From IMG/VR virus record IMGVR_UViG_2872698443_000003: a stretch of 20,548 nucleotides of DNA, one strand, 5' to 3'. Origin of the DNA: a virus. Taxonomy: Duplodnaviria > Heunggongvirae > Uroviricota > Caudoviricetes. A model generated the notes under the pieces. The model saw only the letters and a program-made list of their open reading frames with translations, did no database searches and was not told where the DNA came from. A program made the translations under genes and the position numbers. Positions 1 through 16,969 of this stretch are shown piece after piece. Each line of letters begins with the position of its first letter. Within the stretch, counting starts at the first letter, position 1.

Positions 1-366
1 ATGATTGATGTCTTAGGACCGGAGAAACGCAGACGGCGTACTACACAGGAAAAGATCGCTATTGTTCAGCAGAGTTTTGAACCGGGAATGACGGTCTCCC
101 TTGTTGCCCGGCAACACGGTGTGGCAGCCAGCCAGTTATTTCTCTGGCGCAAGCAATACCAGGAGGGAAGTCTTACTGCTGTGGCCGCAGGAGAGCAGGT
201 CGTTCCTGCCTCTGAACTTGCTGCTGCCATGAAGCAGATTAAAGAACTCCAGCGCCTGCTCGGCAAAAAAACGATGGAAAATGAACTCCTTAAAGAAGCC
301 GTTGAATACGGGCGTGCAAAAAAGTGGATAGCGCACGCGCCCTTATTGCCCGGGGATGGGGAGTAA
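1..366 (+). CDS. insC: IS2 transposase OrfA (InsC), 121 aa
   Basis: Track ORF 1..366; protein [30 protein letters not shown]... recognised as IS2 InsC. Confidence 0.92.
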
Positions 367-1229
367 GCTTAGTCAGCCGTTGTCTCCGGGTGTCGCGTGC
401 GCAGTTGCACGTAATTCTCAGACGAACCGATGACTGGAAAGATGGTCGCCGCAGCCGTCACTCAGATGATACGGATGTGCTTCTCCGTATACACCATGTT
501 ATCGGAGAGCTGCCCACGTATGGTTATCGTCGGGTATGGGCGCTGCTTCGCAGACAGGCCGAACTTGATGGTATGCCTGCGATCAATGCCAAACGTGTTT
601 ACCGGATCATGCGCCAGAATGCGCTGTTGCTTGAGCGAAAAACCGCTGTACCGCCATCGAAACGGGCACATACTGGCAAAGTGGCCGTGAAAGAAAGCAA
701 TCAACGATGGTGCTCTGACGGGTTCGAGTTCCGCTGTGATAACGGAGAAAAACTGCGAGTCACGTTCGCGCTGGACTGCTGTGACCGTGAGGCACTGCAC
801 TGGGCAGTCACTACGGGCGGCTTCGACAGTGAAACAGTACAGGACGTCATGCTGGGAGCGGTGGAACGCCGCTTCGGCAACGAGCTTCCGGCGTCTCCAG
901 TAGAGTGGCTGACGGATAATGGTTCATGCTACCGGGCTAATGAAACACGGCAGTTTGCCCGGATATTGGGGCTTGAACCGAAGAACACGGCGGTGCGGAG
1001 TCCGGAGAGTAACGGCATAGCAGAGAGCTTCGTGAAAACGATAAAGCGTGACTACATCAGTATCATGCCTAAACCAGACGGGTTAACGGCAGCAAAGAAC
1101 CTTGCAGAGGCGTTCGAGCATTATAACGAATGGCATCCGCATAGTGCACTGGGTTATCGCTCGCCACGGGAATATCTGCGGCAGCAGGCCAGTAATGGGT
1201 TAAGTGATAACAGGTGTCTGGAAATATAG
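324..1229 (+). CDS. insD: IS2 transposase OrfB (InsD), 301 aa, -1 frame relative to insC; OrfAB fusion expected by programmed frameshift
   Basis: Track ORF 324..1229 with DDE-type integrase core; overlaps insC at AAAAAAG 318-324. Confidence 0.92.
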
Positions 1230-1854: not shown

Positions 1855-1927
1855 ACATCTACTTGAGGCGGCATGGGATTGATTGGAATGGTGTTTTTTA
1901 GATGTGAAAAATATTTTACCCGCTATT

Positions 1928-2128
1928 TTACCCATTAGCGCGGCTTAAGAGCTTATTTTTGAATTCACAATGGTCACGATATAACCATCTTGCTCGCCCG
2001 TGGATAACTTTGGCTTTTGGCAGGTCGCCGGACTTAATCCGGTCATAGATGAAGGTTTTACCAAAGCCAGTATCAGCCATGATGAATTTCAAATCAACCA
2101 GTGAATCAGGCTGTAGTTCGTGTTGCAT
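1928..2128 (-). CDS. torI: TorI, KplE1 excisionase/recombination directionality factor and Tor response-regulator inhibitor, 66 aa
   Basis: Track ORF 1928..2128; protein MQHELQPDSLVDLKFIMADTGFGKTFIYDRIKSGDLPKAKVIHGRARWLYRDHCEFKNKLLSRANG matches E. coli K-12 TorI as recalled. Confidence 0.9.
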   Translation of the reverse strand: MQHELQPDSLVDLKFIMADTGFGKTFIYDRIKSGDLPKAKVIHGRARWLYRDHCEFKNKLLSRANG

Positions 2129-2171
2129 GAGTGCTATCTCCGAATAGGGAATCGAACCTGCAAATCAGGTA

Positions 2172-2194
2172 ATAAAAAACCGCCATCAGGCGGC
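2172..2194 (-). terminator. Rho-independent terminator (stem CCGCC/GGCGG, loop ATCA, T-run on the minus strand)
   Basis: Hairpin 2180-2193 followed on the minus strand by TTTTTTATT (plus-strand A-run 2174-2179); stop codon of the upstream small ORF lies in the loop. Confidence 0.55.
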
Positions 2195-2353
2195 TTGGTG
2201 TTCTTTCAGTTCTTCAATTCGAATATTGGTTACGTCTGCATGTGCTATCTGCGCCCATATCATCCAGTGGTCATAGCAGTCGTTGATGTTCTCCGCTTCG
2301 ATAACTCTGTTGAATGGTTCTCCATTCCATTCACCTGTGACTCGGAAGTGCAT
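2186..2353 (-). CDS. Small hypothetical protein, 55 aa (MHFRVTGEWNGEPFNRVIEAENINDCYDHWMIWAQIAHADVTNIRIEELKEHQAA), below the track's length cutoff
   Basis: Manual translation; ATG 2353 preceded by GGAG at about 8 nt; ends inside the terminator loop. Confidence 0.45.
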   Translation of the reverse strand: MHFRVTGEWNGEPFNRVIEAENINDCYDHWMIWAQIAHADVTNIRIEELKEHQAA

Positions 2354-2433
2354 TTATCATCTCCATAAAACAAAACTCGCCGTAGCGAGTTCAGATAAAA
2401 GAAATCCATCAATTGGTTAGGGTTTTTGTAATT

Positions 2434-2625
2434 CTACGAATTATGTTGTTTTTTAGCTTCAGCTTTCCATTCATCAAAGGCAGTGTCTTTGTTCATGGTG
2501 CTGATATTGATCTTACGGTCAATATCATATACACGCCACTCACCGTTAGGCCTCTCTTCGCATCTAACTAAGTATGAATTGCCATTAATATCTATGCGTC
2601 TGTCTATTTGCATGAACATTTTCAA
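2434..2625 (-). CDS. Hypothetical prophage protein, 63 aa
   Basis: Track ORF in the leftward operon, no overlap with better ORFs. Confidence 0.5.
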   Translation of the reverse strand: MKMFMQIDRRIDINGNSYLVRCEERPNGEWRVYDIDRKINISTMNKDTAFDEWKAEAKKQHNS

Positions 2626-2736
2626 TTTTCGAACCCTCTTTAATATGCATTTTTTGCTATTTCAGTAGTTTACTATTGATGAGGCGTTATTATACACACT
2701 TCATTAATGCAAGCATCTTTATGCTATGCTACTAAT

Positions 2737-3018
2737 TTAGCAATTGATATTTACCTTTATCGCGTATACCTTAACCGGTTTATCGCCGAAGTGGGGATGT
2801 GTGATTGTCTTGATTTCATATCCACCATACGGAACATCAATTCTACGGCTGGAATCGTCGCGCTTCGGATATCCCTTTGTGATAATCAGGCGGTCATACT
2901 CCCGGAACATAATTCGCTTATTCCAATAGTCATTACACAGGCGATACTCTTCCGTTTTCTCTCCTCGAATCATGGCATCGAAGTATTCACCTTTGACGGC
3001 AAGTTGCAGGTTAGCCAC
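2737..3018 (-). CDS. Hypothetical early-operon protein, 93 aa from GTG start (track ORF extends to 3087)
   Basis: GTG 3018 preceded by AGGAGG at 6 nt; the longer track start would overlap the upstream gene by 77 nt. Confidence 0.55.
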   Translation of the reverse strand: MANLQLAVKGEYFDAMIRGEKTEEYRLCNDYWNKRIMFREYDRLIITKGYPKRDDSSRRIDVPYGGYEIKTITHPHFGDKPVKVYAIKVNINC

Positions 3019-3577
3019 GGTTAACCTCCTGCGGCGGCTCTGGTAGCGGCATCCAGTGTGACGGCTCACATACCCCCTCAACACCATTCATGTAAAAGAA
3101 TTGAAATAACCCTTTACCTTTGTGAAACCCTACCATCTGCTCTTTTGTGTCTGAACAATAAACCAAAACATCTTCTTCGTTTGGCATTCGCTCACTACAG
3201 CTTATCCAACTATCCGGAGTTACCGGAGAGTTGCCCGATAGCTGGTTCAACTTGTAAGTTTGGCTTACAGGTTCGGCTTTCAGTTCTGCTATGCGCTTTT
3301 TTGCTGTTTCCAGCTCATCCAGCAGCGCCAAGACGGTAGCCGGATTGGCTGCGGCGATGAATTCAGCATTGGCCTGCTGTTCCATTTGGAAATCTTCATC
3401 GAAGCCGCTTTCAGGATGCGCTCCTTCAATTCTGCAAATGGGAAGATATCCAACAACGTCACGATGAATTAGCGCATCACCAGCATCAAGCCTCTCCTCT
3501 CCATATTCTAGCGACCACACACCACACGTTGCTTTCTCTGCCGCCTCACGCAGTGCCTGATAGTCAATCTTGCTCAC
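3011..3577 (-). CDS. Ead/Ea22-like N-terminus plus DUF551-like C-terminus, lambdoid early accessory protein, 188 aa
   Basis: Track ORF; N-terminus [24 protein letters not shown]... and C-terminal WISCSERMP...HWMPLPEPP resemble Ea22/DUF551 proteins (recalled family features). Confidence 0.6.
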   Translation of the reverse strand: MSKIDYQALREAAEKATCGVWSLEYGEERLDAGDALIHRDVVGYLPICRIEGAHPESGFDEDFQMEQQANAEFIAAANPATVLALLDELETAKKRIAELKAEPVSQTYKLNQLSGNSPVTPDSWISCSERMPNEEDVLVYCSDTKEQMVGFHKGKGLFQFFYMNGVEGVCEPSHWMPLPEPPQEVNRG

Positions 3578-4056
3578 TGGTCGCCTCCTTTGCGAAGCTG
3601 GTCGGCGAACAAACGTACACTAGACGCTTCACTGCGTAGAAACTTAACGGCATAATCAAAACCACCTCGTTCTGCGTCGTCTGCTCCGTTGTCGAGGTTA
3701 TCTGCGTACATCTCTACCCCCTGCGCCCGTACTTCAGCCAGGAAAGCATCGGTAGATGGGGTGTTAAGTGAAAAGTCCTGTCGGCCTGATTTCAGATACG
3801 CAATGGCGATCTTTGTTGCTGCGCATTCGACAGCGAATTTCTCTTTTTCAGCAGCCATCTTCGCGCACTTGGCCTCAAGGTTATCAATCGTGATTCCAGC
3901 AGAACGACACTCCCGCAACGCCGTTTCCAGTTTTGATTCAAGTTCACCGAACTTACGCACCAGATATTCAGCGTTTGTTTCGTTAACCTTTAAATCACTT
4001 GGGATGCATTTACCTTTCAGAAATCCATCCATCTCAATTAGTGACATTTGTTTCAT
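3574..4056 (-). CDS. Coiled-coil Ea22-like early protein, 160 aa from the internal ATG (track start 4074 is GTG)
   Basis: ATG 4056 overlaps the stop of the upstream 54-aa ORF in an ATGA motif; stop overlaps the next start (ATGA at 3574-3577). Confidence 0.5.
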
Positions 4057-4217
4057 TTCTTCCCACTCCGCCACATTGCATTCAGATATTTGTTGTCATT
4101 AACAGAACCGAAACTATTTCTCTTAAGCAATTCCTCTCTCGATGGCATTGGCTTTACGCGTTGGCGAATAATCATTTCTGCCGGAAGAATGCCGGGATTG
4201 TATGCAAGTCCTCTCAT
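4053..4217 (-). CDS. Small hypothetical protein, 54 aa ([54 protein letters not shown])
   Basis: Manual translation; ATGA overlaps at both ends (4214-4217 and 4053-4056); GGAGAG upstream. Confidence 0.4.
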
Positions 4218-4504
4218 GATTTACTCTCCACGAACTGGTCAACGGCCATGCTAAGTGACACACCTAAAGTATCGATATGCTGCTGAATATCCTGTAGCGT
4301 CCGCGCTTGAGATAACAGAATTTCACGGTTGCATAACTCTTTAACCAGATGCTCAAACTTGCTGTAATAACCGATACGGCTTAGTGTTTCTTTCCCTGCA
4401 TTCTCACCTTCTTTGATAATTCCTCTTTCGCTAAGAATCAGGTCGTGTTTGGTTCCGGTAATAACGTATTTGCCGAGGTCGATGTTTAGCTTCATTGTTT
4501 TCAT
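4214..4504 (-). CDS. Hypothetical protein, 96 aa from ATG 4504 (track ORF 4214..4657 has a longer, overlapping start)
   Basis: ATG 4504 preceded by GAGGAA at about 8 nt and lies 10 nt after the upstream stop. Confidence 0.5.
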
Positions 4505-4514
4505 TGTTAATTCC

Positions 4515-4811
4515 TCAGTCATTACTGATAGCGCCATAGCGTGAGCGGTAATTACGCAGGCGCGGGTCGATATATTCAGGGAAGTGGGTATATGTGGCTT
4601 TGCGGAATGGTCGGATTGATGTCTGGTAAATTCGCTCTCGTTCTTCTTTCTCTGCAAGCCATATACAGTGGCGAAATTCCTTTTCTTCTTTCGTTTCCTG
4701 CGGTAGCGACATTATCCGGTCGTAGTTTTTCCTGAATTTATCCAGCACCTCCGATACGGAATTGCCGGAACAGCGGCGCGCGTCGTCCGCACCATACAGA
4801 GGCGCTGGCAT
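4515..4811 (-). CDS. Hypothetical basic protein, 98 aa
   Basis: Track ORF; AGGAG 6 nt upstream of ATG 4811. Confidence 0.55.
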   Translation of the reverse strand: MPAPLYGADDARRCSGNSVSEVLDKFRKNYDRIMSLPQETKEEKEFRHCIWLAEKEERERIYQTSIRPFRKATYTHFPEYIDPRLRNYRSRYGAISND

Positions 4812-7574: not shown

Positions 7575-7901
7575 TCAAATAAGTGGTTTGCTGCCTAATT
7601 TCATTTTCTGGCGACCAACACAAGTCACACCCATTTCACTGCGTGGCTTGCTGTACCATGTGCGCTGATTCTTGCGCTCAATACGTTGCAGGTTGCTTTC
7701 AATCTGTTCGTGGTATTCAGCCAGCACCGTAAGGTCTATCGGATTCAGTGCGCTTTCTACTCGTGATTTCGGTTTGCGATTCAGCGAGAGAATAGGGCGG
7801 TTAACTGGTTTTGCGCTTACCCCAACCAACAGGGGATTTGCTGCTTTCCATTGAGCCTGTTTCTCTGCGCGACGTTCGCGGCGGCGTGTTTGTGCATCCA
7901 T
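7575..7901 (-). CDS. N: Antitermination protein N (lambda-like), 108 aa from the internal ATG
   Basis: MDAQTRRRERRAEKQAQWKAANPLLVGVSAKPVNRPILSLNRKPKSRVESALNPIDLTVLAEYH... matches lambda N as recalled; the track ORF's 30 extra N-terminal codons are not part of N. Confidence 0.9.
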   Translation of the reverse strand: MDAQTRRRERRAEKQAQWKAANPLLVGVSAKPVNRPILSLNRKPKSRVESALNPIDLTVLAEYHEQIESNLQRIERKNQRTWYSKPRSEMGVTCVGRQKMKLGSKPLI

Positions 7902-9668: not shown

Positions 9669-9815
9669 ATGACAAAACAACTCAGTCCTTACCAGGACAA
9701 AATTCACAAACACATACTACGTGATCGCTTCCTGTCCAGCTTCAAGCAGCCTGGTCGATTCCGGGCTGAGTTGGAAAAAGTGAAGCTGATGCAGAAGGAG
9801 AAAGGTCATGAGTAA
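9669..9815 (+). CDS. Small hypothetical protein, 48 aa, between cII and the replication initiator
   Basis: Manual translation ([48 protein letters not shown]); AGGAG 6 nt upstream; overlaps the next start by 8 nt. Confidence 0.4.
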
Positions 9816-10668
9816 TCTTGCAACCGTAACACATTTAAGGCCTTCACAACGGCCTGTGGAGCGTCGTGTGGCAGAAGTTGAAGATGGTTATACCCGTCTT
9901 GCAAATGCCCTGTATGAAGAGCTTATCGGCGCAGATTTAACGAAAAATCAGAGCAAGGTTGCCCACGCCATATGCCGTAAAACATACGGCTACGGTAAAA
10001 AGATGGATCGCATTTCTGATAGTCAGTTAGCTCAAATTACCAGGCTGCCAAGACAGAAGGTAAACAAGGCCAAGAATGAGCTTATCGCGATGAAGGTTAT
10101 CCTTCGCGAAGGCCAGCAAATCGGGCCTAACAAGAACATCGAAGAATGGCAAATCGAAGGGTGTCACTACTCTGGTGATAATGTCACTGCATTGGTGACA
10201 AAAAGTGTCACCAAAACGGTGACAGCGCTGTCACCAAAACAGGGACACACAAAAGAAACTATTACAAAAGAAAAAAGAAATAATAAAAACACTATGTCCG
10301 AAAGTGTTCGGACGGAGTGTGAAAAATCATCTGACCGTCACGAAGAAACCGACAAGGCATTCGAGGAAATATTCTGGTGTGCAGGCATGCGGAAAGCCGG
10401 GAAGAAAAACGCGGCTTCGGCATTCAGAACACAGTTCAGGGAATGGCGTAAAACTACCAGGGGTACGGCAAGCGAGTTTGCCACGATGCTGGCAGAAGAC
10501 ATCGCATGCAGGAATGGTAAGCAGTTCGGATTCGACAGGTTGTTACCATCGAGCTACCTGAACGGTCAACGCTGGAACGACGAGAAGCCAGAAACTATTC
10601 AACCACAATCCAAACCATCATCCGCAATCACCGTATCGAAAACTGGCTACGTGTTTTTCGACAGGTGA
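9808..10668 (+). CDS. Replication initiator / replisome organiser (O-like), 286 aa, with origin iterons inside the gene
   Basis: Track ORF at the O position after cII; internal GTGACA/TGTCACC iterons plus AT-rich tract. Confidence 0.6.
10160..10296 (+). repeat. Candidate replication origin: iterons (GGTGACA-N5-TGTCACC, GGTGACA-N4-TGTCACC plus half-sites) followed by an AT-rich tract at 10250-10296
   Basis: Seen directly: ...GGTGACAAAAAGTGTCACCAAAACGGTGACAGCGCTGTCACCAAAACAGGGACACACAAAAGAAACTATTACAAAAGAAAAAAGAAATAATAAAAAC. Confidence 0.6.
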
Positions 10669-10671
10669 ACC

Positions 10672-10779
10672 ATGAAATCAAAAATCAAATCGCTACTGGT
10701 CGCTGGTTATAACCACGGCTGGTTAAGTATTTCGTTTGTCGATTTCTGGTTTAAAAATCTCAATCTGAGGGAATCATGA
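10672..10779 (+). CDS. Micro-ORF, 35 aa, hydrophobic (MKSKIKSLLVAGYNHGWLSISFVDFWFKNLNLRES)
   Basis: AGGTGA upstream; stop overlaps the primase-helicase start (ATGA at 10776-10779). Confidence 0.3.
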   Translation: MKSKIKSLLVAGYNHGWLSISFVDFWFKNLNLRES

Positions 10780-12656
10780 CGCCAAGTGAACTTAGCGACC
10801 TGCTTTGGGCGCAGGTTGACAGGGTGGCTCCGCACCTGTTGCCAAACGGCAAGAAAGAGGGGCATGAGTGGGTTGCCGGTAACGTCAACGGTGACAAGGG
10901 AAACAGCCTTAAGGTCAACCTTAGCGGCAAGAAAAAATGGGCTGATTTCGCTGAGGGAGACGGCGGTGACATGCTTGATTTGTGGATGGCATGTCGTGGA
11001 ATTAACCTGCATCAGGCTATGCAGGAAGCGAAAGCCTTTCTCGGAATCAAGGATGACGATCACCATTTCGATGCCAAACGTGAGAAGAAATTCTCCAGAC
11101 CTGACCGCAAGAAAATCGCCCGCTACGTTACCAGAACAGAATCCCATCTTGAGTACCTGCAATCGCGTGGCATATCGCCAGAAGTCGTAAAGCGCTACGA
11201 GGTTGTCAGCGGCAAGGTGTGGAAGGGAGAACGAGAACTTGATGCACTGGTGCTTCCGTACAAACGCGATGGTGAGTTGTTGCAGGTCAAGCGAATCAGC
11301 ACTGAGCGCCCGGACGGGAAGAAAGTCATTATGGCAGAAGGTGATTGCGAACCTTGTCTGTTCGGATGGCAGGCTCTGGACGCTGGCGTGAGGGCGGTTG
11401 TGCTTTGCGAAGGCGAAATTGATTGTATGAGCTATGCGCAATACGGCATCTCGGCGTTATCCGTGCCGTTTGGTGGAGGGAAAGGCGCTAAGCAACAGTG
11501 GATTGAGTTTGAGTACCACAACCTCGACAGGTTTGAGGAAATATTCATCTCGATGGACGTTGATGATGTTGGTCGTGAAGCCGCAAGGGAAATCGCAAGC
11601 CGACTCGGTGAACATCGTTGCCGTCTTGTTACTCTGCCGTACAAAGACATCAACGAATGCCTGATGAACGGTGTTACCGAGGATGAAATCTGGCAGTACA
11701 TCGGCACGGCATCCTACTTCGATCCTGAAGAACTCTACAGTGCGCGAGAGTTTTACCAGGACACTATCAACGCTTTCTACGGCAAGCAGCAGTATCTGTT
11801 TAATCCACCGTGGGAATCTCTGGCAGATAAATTCCAGTTCCGTGAGGCAGAGTTGACGCTGGTCAATGGTGTGAACGGTCACGGAAAAACGGAGGTTGTC
11901 GGGCATATGGCACTTGAGGCAATGCGTCAGGGTGTGAAGACGTGCATCGCGTCACTTGAGCTGAAGCCTGGTATTCTCCTTAAGCGCCTTACCCGTCAGG
12001 CGACGTGCTGCAAGATGCCGCCAGTGCTGGAAATTGACTCTGCATTTAAATTTTATGACGAAAGACTTTGGGTGTTTGGTCTGACCGGAACGGCGAAAGC
12101 CGACAGGCTGATCGAAATATTCGACTACGCTCGCCGCCGATACGGGATCCAGTTATTCATCATCGACAGCCTGATGAAATGTGGCATAGGCGACGATGAC
12201 TATAACGGGCAGAAGGCGTTTGTTGACTCGATTTGCGACTTCAAAAACAAAACAAACTCCCACGTCATTCTCGTTACTCACTCGCGAAAAGGAGACAGCG
12301 AAGAAAAACCAACCGGGAAAATGGACGTAAAAGGCTCTGGAGCGATAACAGACCTGACAGACAACCTTTTCATCATCTGGCGTAACAAGGCTCGCGAGAG
12401 AGCGTTACAGAGAGTTCAGAGTGGTGAAAAGATGTCAGAGAAGGACGAACAGCTACTGGCATCTCCGGCATCTGTTTTGATGCTTGAAAAACAACGTAAC
12501 GGCGAAGGTTGGGAAGGTGGTGTCCCGTTGTTCCTTGACGAGCAATCGCACCAGTTCCTGCAACTTGAATCAGGATCGCCATATAGCTACATCGCCAATA
12601 TGCCGAAATCGGAATATGACGAGGCGTGGCGACAGGAAAACGTGACGGAGTATTAA
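10776..12656 (+). CDS. Bifunctional primase-helicase (Toprim domain plus DnaB/RecA-like helicase core), 626 aa
   Basis: Toprim-like VVLCEGEIDCMS and ISMDVDD; Walker A NGVNGHGKT; Walker B-like LFIIDSL; occupies the lambda P position. Confidence 0.7.
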   Translation: MTPSELSDLLWAQVDRVAPHLLPNGKKEGHEWVAGNVNGDKGNSLKVNLSGKKKWADFAEGDGGDMLDLWMACRGINLHQAMQEAKAFLGIKDDDHHFDAKREKKFSRPDRKKIARYVTRTESHLEYLQSRGISPEVVKRYEVVSGKVWKGERELDALVLPYKRDGELLQVKRISTERPDGKKVIMAEGDCEPCLFGWQALDAGVRAVVLCEGEIDCMSYAQYGISALSVPFGGGKGAKQQWIEFEYHNLDRFEEIFISMDVDDVGREAAREIASRLGEHRCRLVTLPYKDINECLMNGVTEDEIWQYIGTASYFDPEELYSAREFYQDTINAFYGKQQYLFNPPWESLADKFQFREAELTLVNGVNGHGKTEVVGHMALEAMRQGVKTCIASLELKPGILLKRLTRQATCCKMPPVLEIDSAFKFYDERLWVFGLTGTAKADRLIEIFDYARRRYGIQLFIIDSLMKCGIGDDDYNGQKAFVDSICDFKNKTNSHVILVTHSRKGDSEEKPTGKMDVKGSGAITDLTDNLFIIWRNKARERALQRVQSGEKMSEKDEQLLASPASVLMLEKQRNGEGWEGGVPLFLDEQSHQFLQLESGSPYSYIANMPKSEYDEAWRQENVTEY

Positions 12657-12685
12657 ATGACCATCTACATCACTGAGCTAATAAC

Positions 12686-12717
12686 AGGCCTGCTGGTAAT
12701 CGCAGGCCTTTTTATTT
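12686..12717 (+). terminator. Rho-independent terminator after the primase-helicase
   Basis: Stem AGGCCTGC/GCAGGCCT with 8-nt loop, followed by TTTTTATTT. Confidence 0.6.
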
Positions 12718-12732
12718 GGGGGAGAGTAAATC

Positions 12733-12939
12733 GTGGCTGAGTTTATGCTCGTCGCATTCAAATGCGTTGGCGTTGGATGGATTCTTCTGACGTTTTTTAT
12801 TGTTCTGCATAGCTACATTCGTCTTGTGAATGACGGTAAAGACCCATGGTATACGTTGTTTGGCGCTGCATTTGTCTGGGTGATTATCGGTGTTATGCCT
12901 GTCGCTGTAGCAAAAATGGCGTGGCGTTTTGTGAGTTGA
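12733..12939 (+). CDS. Small membrane protein, 68 aa, two predicted transmembrane helices
   Basis: Track ORF, GTG start with GGGGGAGAG upstream; hydrophobic stretches LVAFKCVGVGWILLTFFIVL and FGAAFVWVIIGVMPVAVA. Confidence 0.5.
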   Translation: MAEFMLVAFKCVGVGWILLTFFIVLHSYIRLVNDGKDPWYTLFGAAFVWVIIGVMPVAVAKMAWRFVS

Positions 12940-16136: not shown

Positions 16137-16191
16137 GGTAATGCTGCCAACTTACTGATTTAGTGTATGATGGTGTTTTTGAGGTGCTCCA

Positions 16192-16467
16192 GTGGCTTCT
16201 GTTTCTATCAGCTGTCCCTCCTGTTCAGCTACTGACGGGGTGGTGCGTAACGGCAAAAGCACCGCCGGACATCAGCGCTATCTCTGCTCTCACTGCCGTA
16301 AAACATGGCAACTGCAGTTCACTTACACCGCTTCTCAACCCGGTACGCACCAGAAAATCATTGATATGGCCATGAATGGCGTTGGATGCCGGGCAACTGC
16401 CCGCATTATGGGCGTTGGCCTCAACACGATTTTACGTCACTTAAAAAACTCAGGCCGCAGTCGGTAA
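16192..16467 (+). CDS. insA: IS1 InsA, 91 aa
   Basis: [43 protein letters not shown]... recognised. Confidence 0.95.
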
Positions 16468-16889
16468 CCTCGCGCATACAGCCGGGCAGTGACGTCATCG
16501 TCTGCGCGGAAATGGACGAACAGTGGGGCTATGTCGGGGCTAAATCGCGCCAGCGCTGGCTGTTTTACGCGTATGACAGGCTCCGGAAGACGGTTGTTGC
16601 GCACGTATTCGGTGAACGCACGATGGCGACGCTGGGGCGTCTTATGAGCCTGCTGTCACCCTTTGACGTGGTGATATGGATGACGGATGGCTGGCCGCTG
16701 TATGAATCCCGCCTGAAGGGAAAGCTGCACGTAATCAGCAAGCGATATACGCAGCGAATTGAGCGGCATAACCTGAATCTGAGGCAGCACCTGGCACGGC
16801 TGGGACGGAAGTCGCTGTCGTTCTCAAAATCGGTGGAGCTGCATGACAAAGTCATCGGGCATTATCTGAACATAAAACACTATCAATAA
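16386..16889 (+). CDS. insB: IS1 InsB' transposase reading frame, 167 aa (expressed as InsAB' by -1 frameshift)
   Basis: Track ORF matches IS1 InsB as recalled. Confidence 0.95.
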
Positions 16890-16969
16890 GTTGGAGTCAT
16901 TACCGTAATGTTGTTCTGAGAAATACTCATATTGGTTGCCTTGATCTTTTTTCATACGATAACACGCAG

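Follow-up and report, generated by a model that had tools for sequence, protein, structure and literature searches.

An ES18-type replication module with a conserved 35-aa gene, followed by a NinA/tR2 junction, in a lambdoid prophage of Escherichia coli

Overall organization of the module

The region analysed here is best explained, with a probability of about 0.8, as a DNA-replication module of the ES18 type in a lambdoid (P22-like) E. coli prophage, followed by a generic lambdoid NinA/tR2 junction. It lies in a stretch of 20,548 nucleotides (IMG/VR record IMGVR_UViG_2872698443_000003), hereafter the window, and its features are collected in Table 1. Within the early-right operon, an O-like initiator gene with iterons is followed by a gp60-like 35-aa ORF and then by a gp61-like primase-helicase gene. 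This gene order is shared, at 97–99% DNA identity, with vB_EcoP-720R6, Sf101, mEp043 and the Stx2 phages Min27 and Phi24B, and, at 88–90%, with SEN22, ES18 and epsilon34. The module is present in 286 of 5,426 complete E. coli genomes. Lambdoid modules of the type "O homologue plus nonhomologous primase-helicase" have been described (Casjens-group papers, PMC10307801, PMC2629481), and the replication module, the micro-ORFs and the terminator have all been annotated previously in related phages. Taken as a whole, the module matters little beyond housekeeping, its components being catalogued and NinA/tR2 having a direct experimental literature.

Table 1. Features of the replication module and the junction downstream of it (positions in the window)
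Feature	Position	Strand	Evidence
Lambda O-like replication initiator, 286 aa	9808..10668	+	Pfam Phage_rep_O 1.1e-37; NCBIfam phage_O_Nterm 1.6e-30; ES18 gp59 homolog
Origin within the O-like gene	10162..10290		Four 19-bp iterons and A-rich tract (repeat search, sequence)
3′ end of the initiator gene, coding for the C-terminal tail	10609..10665	+	Co-inherited with the micro-ORF and the primase-helicase
Conserved 35-aa micro-protein gene (ES18 gp60 / epsilon34 gp51 / phrog_21848)	10672..10779	+	phrog_21848 E=4.4e-26
T7 gp4/Twinkle-type bifunctional primase-helicase, 626 aa (ES18 gp61 homolog)	10776..12656	+	Pfam, PDB, PHROGs
NinA ORF, 27 aa (MTIYITELITGLLVIAGLFIWGRVNRG)	12657..12740	+	phrog_5907 E=1.3e-18; stop overlapping the GTG of the downstream ORF
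Conserved lambdoid junction cassette, 70 nt (NinA 5′ codons, tR2 and the GGGGGAGAG Shine-Dalgarno sequence for the next gene)	12657..12726	+	Alignment
tR2 intrinsic terminator (predicted here)	12686..12717	+	Terminator scan; fold
Very hydrophobic 68-aa ORF (phrog_1165)	12733..12939	+	phrog_1165 5.2e-39; GRAVY 1.23

Genes 59-60-61 of ES18 are the closest described parallel, alike in gene order and homologous in sequence (88% nucleotide identity). They comprise an O-like initiator with an internal iteron origin, the 35-aa gp60 ("function unknown") overlapping the start of gp61, and the 626-aa gp61 itself, a primase/helicase annotated as "similar to T7 gene 4". Further counterparts are epsilon34 genes 50-52, the corresponding genes of Sf101, mEp043 and SEN22, and the "O" and "P" of Phi24B/Min27. 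ES18 and epsilon34 differ from the window in carrying a 92-aa gene (gp62/gp53) between the primase-helicase and NinA. Besides this gene and an intein in the P-loop of the primase-helicase of Min27-type Stx phages, which is absent from the window, there are essentially no other differences from the ES18-type relatives.

In common with the lambda O/P system, the module has an O-type initiator, an origin inside the initiator's own gene, a second replication gene translationally coupled downstream and a place in the operon after cII and before the nin region. Lambda P, however, is a helicase loader and commandeers host DnaB, whereas the window instead encodes a self-contained primase-helicase unlike P, together with the additional 35-aa gene. 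The prophage itself is probably defective, its Q being interrupted by IS1, and the module is possibly idle in this genome.

Initiator, origin and C-terminal tail

The four iterons, of the form TGTCAC-N7-GGTGACA, occupy positions 10162–10180, 10182–10200, 10206–10224 and 10229–10247, and are followed by the A-rich tract at 10248–10290. In ES18 the equivalent position carries a rep_origin annotation, "similar to lambda ori", and in epsilon34 it is marked as a binding site of the gene 50 protein. The initiator would presumably bind these iterons.

Phages S107 and SI8 have an unrelated initiator (of the "primosomal protein I" or HTH type) that ends in an identical C-terminal tail, and their nucleotide homology to the window starts again at about 10609–10615. 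The tail is thus co-inherited with the helicase even in phages that have exchanged the remainder of the initiator, and this co-inheritance is the one ground on which we propose that the tail may dock, and so recruit, the phage's own primase-helicase. Such recruitment would replace the route through lambda P, host DnaB and DnaG. A Rosetta-stone fusion joining the C-terminus of the initiator to the micro-protein also exists (P0125); it belongs to a decayed prophage with a fragmented primase-helicase and was set aside as too weak.

The primase-helicase

The first-pass annotation had placed a Toprim/DnaB-type primase-helicase in the position of lambda P, and the domain searches bear this out, returning Toprim and SF4 domains downstream of the O-like initiator. 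Toprim_2 (3.2e-12) scores 47.1 bits against a cut-off of 22.1, and AAA_25 (2.1e-6) scores 28.0 bits against a cut-off of 27; DnaB_C (3.3e-5), at 23.8 bits, is under its 27-bit cut-off. Among known structures, T7 gp4 (5ikn, 2.8e-23) aligns continuously over residues 192–539 and Twinkle (8e2l) matches at 6e-14, while the family assignment is phrog_239 "DNA primase/helicase" (2.5e-171). By comparison, neither the 626-aa nor the 35-aa protein matches the lambda P family in Pfam, PHROGs or NCBIfam. The label "P" in the Phi24B and Min27 records is positional only.

As in T7 gp4 and Twinkle, a Toprim primase domain is fused to a RecA-type SF4 helicase with the acidic residues and Walker A/B motifs kept, at an identity of only about 25%. 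In the Toprim motifs EGEID, DVD and KDINE, residues E212, D261, D263 and D291 align with T7 E157, D207, D209 and D237, and they are invariant across the family alignment. Walker A reads GVNGHGKT and Walker B FIIDSL. The allele is intein-free; in relatives that have the intein, it interrupts the Walker A loop after residue 371 (GVNGHGK|T). An AlphaFold2 monomer model from a 12-sequence alignment has a pLDDT of 58, with low confidence in the helicase half. The setting is also different from that of T7: the window protein belongs to a lambdoid system that depends on an initiator and iterons and uses host DNA polymerase, whereas the T7 system uses a phage polymerase.

The N-terminal domain differs from that of T7 gp4 and resembles that of metazoan Twinkle in being devoid of zinc ligands. 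Instead of a zinc-binding Cys4 set, there is a single cysteine (C73) in the first 100 residues, and where some distant relatives have cysteines (EWC…K.C…WCDF) the window protein has V, N and A. The ligands are missing throughout the Enterobacterales clade, and some distant relatives keep three cysteines. The missing zinc domain is not fatal to SF4 membership, because Twinkle is also without one. Since zinc ligands are needed for template recognition in T7 gp4, their loss means that primase activity is not assured. Could the protein then be a helicase only, its primase half being without activity, as in metazoan Twinkle, and priming left to host DnaG? The ligand distribution is in keeping with this, as are a weak alignment of the N-terminal domain with the zinc-binding region of DnaG (TIGR01391, residues 26–143) that lacks the Cys4/CHC2 ligands, and Lys519 in place of the finger residue Arg522 of T7 gp4. 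However, the Toprim catalytic acidic residues are all present, and their invariance in the family argues for a selected catalytic site. We consider a helicase-only protein rather unlikely.

Gene junctions and the 35-aa gene

In the ORF list, the frames of 35, 626 and 27 codons have the coordinates of Table 1 and all start with ATG. The stop codon of the O-like gene (TGA, 10666–10668) is contained in an AGGTGA Shine-Dalgarno sequence (10663–10668) located 3 nt ahead of the ATG of the 35-aa ORF. This ORF ends in an ATGA overlap with the start of the primase-helicase, as had been noted from the sequence, and the overlap was confirmed at 10776–10779, with the Shine-Dalgarno sequence GAGGG at 10767–10771. 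At the other end, the TAA of the primase-helicase (12654–12656) directly abuts the next ATG (12657), for which GGAG at 12647–12650 is the Shine-Dalgarno sequence. Both micro-ORFs are thus laid out for translational coupling, and the three replication genes are linked in a chain, through a Shine-Dalgarno sequence overlapping the upstream stop and then through the ATGA overlap. With 92 ORFs of 20 aa or more in 5.5 kb, chance could by itself produce frames as short as the two micro-ORFs, and only the comparative data give them meaning.

It might be supposed that both micro-ORFs are by-products of this coupling, which ribosomes merely cross on the way to the next start, their peptides being functionless and their sequences irrelevant. 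The start and stop codons of both are indeed interlocked with their neighbours, ATGA chaining is known among the genes of the nin region (PMC8022706), the final codons of the 35-aa ORF serve as the Shine-Dalgarno sequence of the primase-helicase (CTGAGGG), and neither peptide has a known domain in Pfam or NCBIfam. The evolution of the 35-aa ORF speaks otherwise. Its pN/pS is 0.40 in frame but 0.97 and 1.63 when the frame is shifted, and the entropy of its codon positions (0.88/0.55/1.24 for positions 1, 2 and 3) falls in the order 3, 1, 2, as under purifying selection on amino acids. Only this frame stays open, in 31 of 32 unique sequences, and its length is exactly 35 codons in 118 of the 120 copies on viral contigs. 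Residues G12, G16, K6 and L9 are invariant despite saturated synonymous sites. The ORF also stays intact where an HNH endonuclease gene has been inserted at its junction with the primase-helicase. Moreover, the spacer ORF is absent in distant relatives, so that coupling itself needs none. For these reasons, and for those concerning NinA given below, we regard it as very unlikely that both peptides are by-products. Judged from its pattern of substitution, the 35-aa ORF is a real protein-coding gene under purifying selection.

Conservation of this segment could also have come from its RNA, if an mRNA structure hid the ribosome-binding site of the primase-helicase until ribosomes finishing the O gene opened it, the 35-aa ORF being incidental. 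The segment 10650–10830 does fold with z = -3.9 as a single sequence, by way of a long helix pairing the region of the O stop and micro-ORF ribosome-binding site with the 3′ end of the micro-ORF and the primase-helicase Shine-Dalgarno sequence. However, only relatives of about 92% identity or more are predicted to form this helix; the epsilon34/Min27 type and every more distant copy have a different fold, and RNAalifold on 29 sequences gives 2 pairs at -0.6 kcal/mol with no covariation. As a family-wide cause of the conservation, an RNA fold is largely refuted by this want of conservation, and the RNA explanation as such is extremely improbable. An overlapping or antisense gene was also discarded, no other frame being open, including the 244-aa minus-strand ORF at 10707–11441.

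Assignment of the protein to phrog_21848 covers positions 1–34 of 35, and the gene has the family's position directly upstream of the primase-helicase. The consensus is MKSxIKxLLIAGYNHGLLSxxFVxxWFxKLxLRxx. The peptide had been described as hydrophobic, which it is not: its GRAVY is -0.01, its best 19-residue window reaches 0.92 and it contains five K/R residues. A single-sequence AlphaFold2 model gives one helix and nothing else. No match was found in Pfam, NCBIfam, PADLOC or PDB, the PDB profile search and PADLOC giving chance-level matches only for the micro-proteins. The protein has three true hits among 1.84 billion protein database representatives and is left unannotated by PGAP; no literature specific to ES18 gp60 or to the Phi24B replication proteins was found.

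The association of the gene with the primase-helicase is close. In the 115 testable copies on viral contigs, the primase-helicase lies downstream in all but one, down to 59% identity, and directly abuts the 35-aa ORF in 109. Among genome loci, 36 of 49 have the ORF with its conserved motif, including loci whose helicase is only 59–61% identical. Five loci in Xenorhabdus and Providencia, with primase-helicases 68–70% identical, are without an intact copy, which makes the role of an obligatory subunit impossible. What, then, does the protein do? Its role we purely infer: it may be an accessory factor of primase-helicase recruitment or assembly, proposed to be helpful yet dispensable because a few lineages have deleted it. 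In a bolder version, which we think unlikely, initiation would be by a "lambda-O plus T7-gp4" hybrid, with the 35-aa protein as its dedicated micro-subunit. Example roles under such a reading are a helical adaptor joining the initiator tail to the primase-helicase, or an aid to ring assembly or opening at the origin. If it were true, the protein would be the smallest known helicase-loading cofactor, systematically missed by standard annotation (PGAP and most gene callers). Hundreds of prophages in E. coli, Salmonella and Shigella carry the gene, Stx2 phages among them. Being real, selected and almost always beside the primase-helicase, yet unannotated, the gene makes an easy and well-defined target for studies of self-encoded primase-helicase loading.

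The NinA/tR2 junction

The second micro-ORF had been described as a hydrophobic frame that begins at TAAATG and runs through a terminator hairpin. This is accurate: the junction is as described, the peptide has a GRAVY of 1.14 (best window 2.04) and the hairpin spans 12686–12709. It had also been paired with the 35-aa ORF as flanking the primase-helicase, and here the comparison tells against the first-pass annotation, since the frame belongs to a generic NinA/tR2 cassette that follows many unrelated genes and has nothing specific to the primase-helicase. It is annotated as ninA in P22, Sf101 and Lahn1, and equals ES18 gp63 and epsilon34 gp54. The cassette is 98.6% identical to lambda (J02459, 40567–40636) and 92.9% to P22, and about 416 phage records contain it, downstream of genes as unrelated as ren (lambda), gene 12 (P22), dnaB-type helicases and P genes.

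The predicted tR2 consists of an 8-bp stem (12686–12693 with 12702–12709, six G-C pairs), an 8-nt loop (12694–12701) and a U-tract (12710–12717), with TTTTATTT directly 3′ of the hairpin. In the alignment, hairpin and U-tract are identical to those of lambda; a "tR2 terminator" is annotated in Lahn1 and a "terminator... similar to phage lambda" in P22. Lambda and P22 have the same hairpin, U-tract and downstream Shine-Dalgarno sequence, and their NinA start likewise interlocks with the stop of the preceding gene. The difference is confined to the final five codons (…RVNRG against …RGKS), since it is the 68-aa hydrophobic ORF, and not ninB, that follows in the window.

As in lambda, NinA is here a short ORF with its own Shine-Dalgarno sequence that ends on the next start (GTGGCTGA). 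The whole architecture, with a start at the upstream stop, is alike in 129 copies. At least eight unrelated upstream contexts supply a Shine-Dalgarno sequence 6–9 nt ahead of the NinA ATG, and the NinA stop always overlaps the next start.

Lambda tR2 is suppressed by N-modified RNA polymerase. By analogy, tR2 of the window would end non-antiterminated early-right transcripts ahead of the nin genes, and would be overridden by the product of the N homologue gene (7575–7901). The NinA frame, spanning from the stop of the upstream gene to the start codon of the downstream gene with tR2 inside it, would on read-through transcripts carry ribosomes over the hairpin to the next gene. Lambda tR2 terminates transcription, and translation of NinA cuts its efficiency by only about 10% (PMC4824070); according to the same paper, the lambda NinA start site is active and "not weak". 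Whether the two peptides were regulators or by-products had initially been left undecided. The lambda NinA start being active and the 35-aa ORF a selected gene, this question is answered in part; a regulatory role for either peptide is conjectural.

NinA may nevertheless be kept only through its DNA and RNA, that is, as a terminator, its 29-nt spacer and a junction for recombination between modules, with a hydrophobic peptide that is translated but functionless. In 139 of 172 copies, not even the synonymous sites of the hairpin and U-tract vary, homology to most phages begins exactly at the ATG and ends at 12726, and NinA has a C-terminus of variable sequence and length. Furthermore, an alternative hairpin of other sequence at the same place changes the peptide and keeps the terminator, and five copies have the hairpin without the NinA 5′ part. 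If conservation were of this kind, the hydrophobicity would be a side effect of the G+C stem and U-tract (GLLVIAGLF). Against this, the 5′ codons of NinA show a synonymous bias (in codons 2–10, seven synonymous against five conservative replacement types), Shine-Dalgarno sequences have been supplied independently and recurrently, and a variant without any hairpin still encodes a clean transmembrane-like peptide, of 34 aa. The codon bias and the hairpin-less form also count against NinA as a by-product of coupling. Together, the bias, the independent Shine-Dalgarno sequences and the 34-aa form suggest that the peptide matters too, and NinA, a small transmembrane-like peptide, appears to be under selection as well. 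Conservation through DNA and RNA only is quite possible all the same, at somewhat less than even odds. The natural variants, with the tR2 hairpin, with an alternative hairpin or with none, are a ready series with which to part terminator function from peptide function.

The GTG start of the 68-aa ORF, at its overlap with the NinA stop, opens the first nin-region gene in this phage, and PGAP annotates the ORF in the E. coli prophage that matches the window.

Organization of the replication region

The O-like initiator gene is followed by three consecutive ORFs of 35, 626 and 27 amino acids, whose coordinates and junctions agree with those in the first-pass annotation, where the region was read as a primase-helicase gene flanked by translationally coupled micro-ORFs. 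The O-like gene stops at TGA (10666-10668), within an AGGTGA Shine-Dalgarno (SD) sequence that is placed 3 nt ahead of the ATG of the 35-aa ORF, and the stop of the latter is joined to the primase-helicase start by an ATGA overlap (10776-10779), with an SD sequence, GAGGG, at 10767-10771. The primase-helicase stop, TAA, runs without a gap into the ATG of the 27-aa ORF (12657), which has GGAG 6 nt upstream. According to terminator scan and folding, the 27-aa ORF contains a hairpin of 8 bp (6 G-C) and TTTTATTT. Both short peptides had been described as hydrophobic, which is correct for the 27-aa peptide (GRAVY 1.14) but not for the 35-aa one (GRAVY -0.01). Since 92 ORFs of at least 20 aa occur in 5.5 kb, which is the chance background for short ORFs, comparative data are needed to give the micro-ORFs meaning.

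Coordinates of features in the window, unless another record is named
Feature	Position	Strand	Basis or remark
IS3-family transposase gene	1-1229		left end
N	7575-7901	minus	S163-2 prophage match
O-like initiator gene	9808-10668
Origin, four 19-bp iterons (plus A-rich tract)	10162-10247		repeat search, sequence
35-aa ORF	10672-10779	plus	ORF listing
Antisense 244-aa ORF	10707-11441	minus
626-aa ORF	10776-12656	plus	ORF listing
27-aa ORF (NinA)	12657-12740	plus	ORF listing
NinA/tR2 cassette	12657-12726		70 nt
Hairpin in NinA	12686-12709		terminator scan, fold
68-aa ORF	12733-12939		phrog_1165
Second terminator-like hairpin	12769-12794		inside 68-aa ORF
Q-like gene broken by IS1A	16137-16904		compared with S163-2 prophage
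Primase-helicase locus with the 342-aa insertion, Min27	1880-4788		record L005

Up to position 16904 the window is identical to a prophage of E. coli S163-2 except for a single mismatch at 848. The gene layout is lambdoid: besides N, there are a LexA-family repressor, cro, cII and a DUF2740 gene, then the O-like gene and the toprim protein, followed by a nin region (ninB, ninE, ninX, ninF, rusA, ninH) and later by the Q antiterminator gene, lysis genes and terminase. The prophage is probably defective, given that IS1A interrupts the Q-like late-gene antiterminator gene and that the left end carries an IS3-family transposase gene. Of 5426 complete E. coli genomes, 286 contain at least 80% of the stretch 10600-12760, which served as the query.

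By nucleotide comparison, the O-like gene, the 35-aa ORF and the primase-helicase gene are shared by many phages, with identities to the window of 97-99% in vB_EcoP-720R6, Sf101, mEp043 and the Stx2 phages Min27, Phi24B and F403, 89.7% in SEN22, and 88% in ES18 and epsilon34. In ES18 the O-like product, gp59, is annotated with a 'lambda-like ori', the 35-aa product is gp60 ('function unknown'), and the primase-helicase is gp61 ('putative primase/helicase; similar to T7 gene 4'). A distant O homologue combined with a nonhomologous ES18-like primase-helicase is a standard type of lambdoid replication module (PMC10307801; PMC2629481). The module and its micro-ORFs are already known and annotated in related phages, and the remaining value of the region is the 35-aa protein.

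The primase-helicase

The earlier assignment of the large protein as a primase-helicase is borne out by domain search and by alignment with T7 gp4. Pfam returned Toprim_2 (3.2e-12) and AAA_25 (2.1e-6), with DnaB_C (3.3e-5) slightly below the cut-off, and PHROGs returned 'DNA primase/helicase' (2.5e-171). The closest solved structures are T7 gp4 (5ikn, 2.8e-23, over residues 192-539) and human Twinkle (8e2l, 6e-14). Both Walker motifs (A and B) and the acidic residues of the Toprim domain have aligned counterparts in T7 gp4 and do not vary within the family. Taken together, these matches and motifs indicate a primase-helicase of the T7 gp4/Twinkle type with a putative primase half. The N-terminal 100 residues (10776-11075) weakly resemble the DnaG zinc-binding region; they contain no zinc-ligand cysteines, which are absent throughout the Enterobacterales clade, and three Cys are retained in some alpha- and gammaproteobacterial relatives (EWC…K.C…WCDF). 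Where T7 gp4 has its arginine finger, R522, the window protein has Lys519.

A 342-aa insertion in the Walker A loop (GHGK/ACPL…ATHN/TEVV) is present in Min27/Phi24B-type Stx2 phages and in a Cronobacter homolog. It contains LAGLIDADG-like motifs and has Ala as its first residue, and at its C-terminal junction HN is followed by Thr. The corresponding site in the window is empty (~11886-11891, after residue 371). The C-terminus of the Min27 primase-helicase is split by a frameshift into 'P' and 'ORF31'.

The 35-aa ORF is conserved as a protein

Of 49 genomic loci with a gene for a primase-helicase relative, 36 have the 35-aa ORF ahead of the helicase gene, among them loci of Serratia, Rahnella and Pantoea with only 59-61% identity in the helicase; the ORF follows the motif MKSxIKxLLIAGYNHGLLSxxFVxxWFxKLxLRxx. 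Its stop touches the helicase start in every one of the 36 (ATGA or TGATG/TAATG). The 32 unique nucleotide versions give a pN/pS of 0.40 in frame and of 0.97 and 1.63 in the shifted frames, with a codon-position entropy of 0.88/0.55/1.24; the frame is the sole open one in 31 of the 32, the exception being an endosymbiont pseudogene, and an SD-like word lies upstream in 29. Scanning viral contigs with degenerate codons yielded 120 copies with 38 distinct peptides. Of these copies, 118 have exactly 35 codons, and the ORF directly adjoins the primase-helicase N-terminus in 109 of the 115 testable copies. Among the six exceptions are four in which a free-standing HNH endonuclease gene sits exactly at the ATGA junction, with the micro-ORF still intact.

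A conserved RNA structure was considered as the cause of this conservation and rejected, since the strong fold detected here (z = -3.9) is lineage-specific and shows neither conservation nor covariation. With RNA structure excluded, the selection on the frame, its openness, the linkage and the HNH cases indicate that the 35-aa ORF is a real gene conserved at the protein level.

The fold itself (10650-10778) is a long helix pairing the O stop and the micro-ORF ribosome-binding site with the primase-helicase SD, and is confined to close relatives (at least ~92% identical), where it could add a lineage-specific translational coupling. The HNH homing-endonuclease gene (~165 aa, junction ATGATG…; viral contigs L226, L311, L221 and L300) has entered in at least three different sequence backgrounds, and the primase-helicase gains a new start. 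A 244-aa antisense ORF overlaps the primase-helicase 5' end and the micro-ORF 3' end; each of the three antisense frames over the micro-ORF is open in at most 8 of the 32 homologs, which makes a chance ORF the most likely reading.

The 35-aa protein matches phrog_21848 (4.4e-26). It has no match in Pfam, NCBIfam, PADLOC or PDB, is absent from the PGAP annotation of the matching E. coli prophage, and, in a set of 1.84 billion protein cluster representatives, has only three true relatives. Prediction gives a helical protein in which an invariant G12…G16 (GYNHG) segment has an amphipathic stretch on each side.

The initiator tail and a possible role of the 35-aa protein

In phages S107 and SI8, a wholly different initiator carries the same 17-residue C-terminal tail as the O-like protein. 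The identity extends to the nucleotide level (10609-10665), homology resuming ~60 nt before the micro-ORF. This places a recombination junction inside the initiator gene and indicates that the inherited unit consists of initiator tail, micro-ORF and primase-helicase. The S107/SI8 initiators are of the 'primosomal protein I'/HTH type (L009, 850-1560; L010, 922-1554). Where the primase-helicase is a distant relative, the neighbouring initiator terminates in …[A/E/Q]G[V/A][I/L], directly against the start of the helicase.

In lambda, the C-terminus of O binds P. By analogy, we propose that the initiator tail would recruit the primase-helicase, with the 35-aa protein as an accessory to this recruitment. 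An intact copy of the 35-aa ORF is absent at four Xenorhabdus loci and one Providencia locus among the 49, and relatives of the primase-helicase at 48% identity or less have no 35-aa ORF, the initiator gene directly abutting the helicase gene. The 35-aa protein is therefore not indispensable.

The NinA/tR2 cassette

Both micro-ORFs of the proposed flanking pair exist at the claimed junctions, but they are unrelated elements, both already annotated: the 35-aa ORF is a conserved, gp60-like micro-protein linked to the primase-helicase, whereas the 27-aa ORF is the generic lambdoid NinA/tR2 junction. The cassette occurs in about 416 phage records, after whatever replication gene precedes it. It lies right after ren in lambda (40567-40636, 98.6% identical), is found also in 434, H-19B, VT1-Sakai and HK022, and is 92.9% identical in P22. 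ninA is annotated in P22, Sf101, Lahn1, ES18 (gp63) and epsilon34 (gp54), with the terminator tR2 annotated within it in P22 and Lahn1, and in ES18 and epsilon34 a 92-aa gene intervenes between it and the primase-helicase gene. Judged from these varied neighbours, NinA is not tied to the primase-helicase.

A translation experiment of the kind called for in the first-pass annotation has in effect been done for NinA, since Li et al. (NAR 2015; PMC4824070) used the near-identical natural lambda sequence. In that sequence the NinA initiation site, located 30 bp ahead of tR2, 'is not weak': expression of an upstream reporter fell by half under non-stop translation from this site and recovered when the RBS or AUG was mutated, and NinA translation reduced tR2 efficiency by only about 10% (PMC4824070). 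For NinA these authors cite Kröger & Hobom 1982 and a lambda ribosome-profiling study (PMC4824070).

In 129 hairpin-anchored copies, NinA codons 2-10 show 7 synonymous against 5 conservative replacement types, and at least eight unrelated upstream contexts each provide an SD 6-9 nt ahead of the ATG. The ORF, with a mode of 26-27 aa and variable last few residues, always ends on the start of the next gene. Anchoring on the 5' codons gave 172 copies, of which 165 had a full ORF that allowed them to be classed: the tR2 hairpin is present in 147 (invariant including synonymous sites in 139 of these), 10 have a hairpin of other sequence (AGGGGCTATTTACACAGTAGCCC) with a U-tract/T-run (-12 kcal/mol) and an altered peptide, and 7 have no hairpin (-1.6 kcal/mol), yet their 34-aa peptide is still transmembrane-like. 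Given the hairpin invariance, the synonymous bias and the hairpin-less hydrophobic variant, both the terminator and the peptide appear to be selected.

tR2 would stop transcripts lacking N-antitermination ahead of the nin genes, and on read-through transcripts NinA translation would take ribosomes past the hairpin, from the stop of the upstream gene to the start codon that comes next. The spacer in the cassette is constant at 29 nt; in the PMC4824070 model, tR2 is suppressed by a ribosome that terminates within roughly 27 nt, and the spacer would set the upstream stop just outside this range.

The NinA variants with an alternative hairpin or none share the start MTIYITEL (viral contigs L095, L165, L267 and L301, and L257, L268, L298, L328, L335 and L337), and five further tR2 hairpin copies are without any NinA 5' codons. 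In the window the tR2 cassette feeds, instead of ninB, the very hydrophobic 68-aa ORF (GRAVY 1.23), whose GTG start overlaps the NinA stop and which contains the second terminator-like hairpin.
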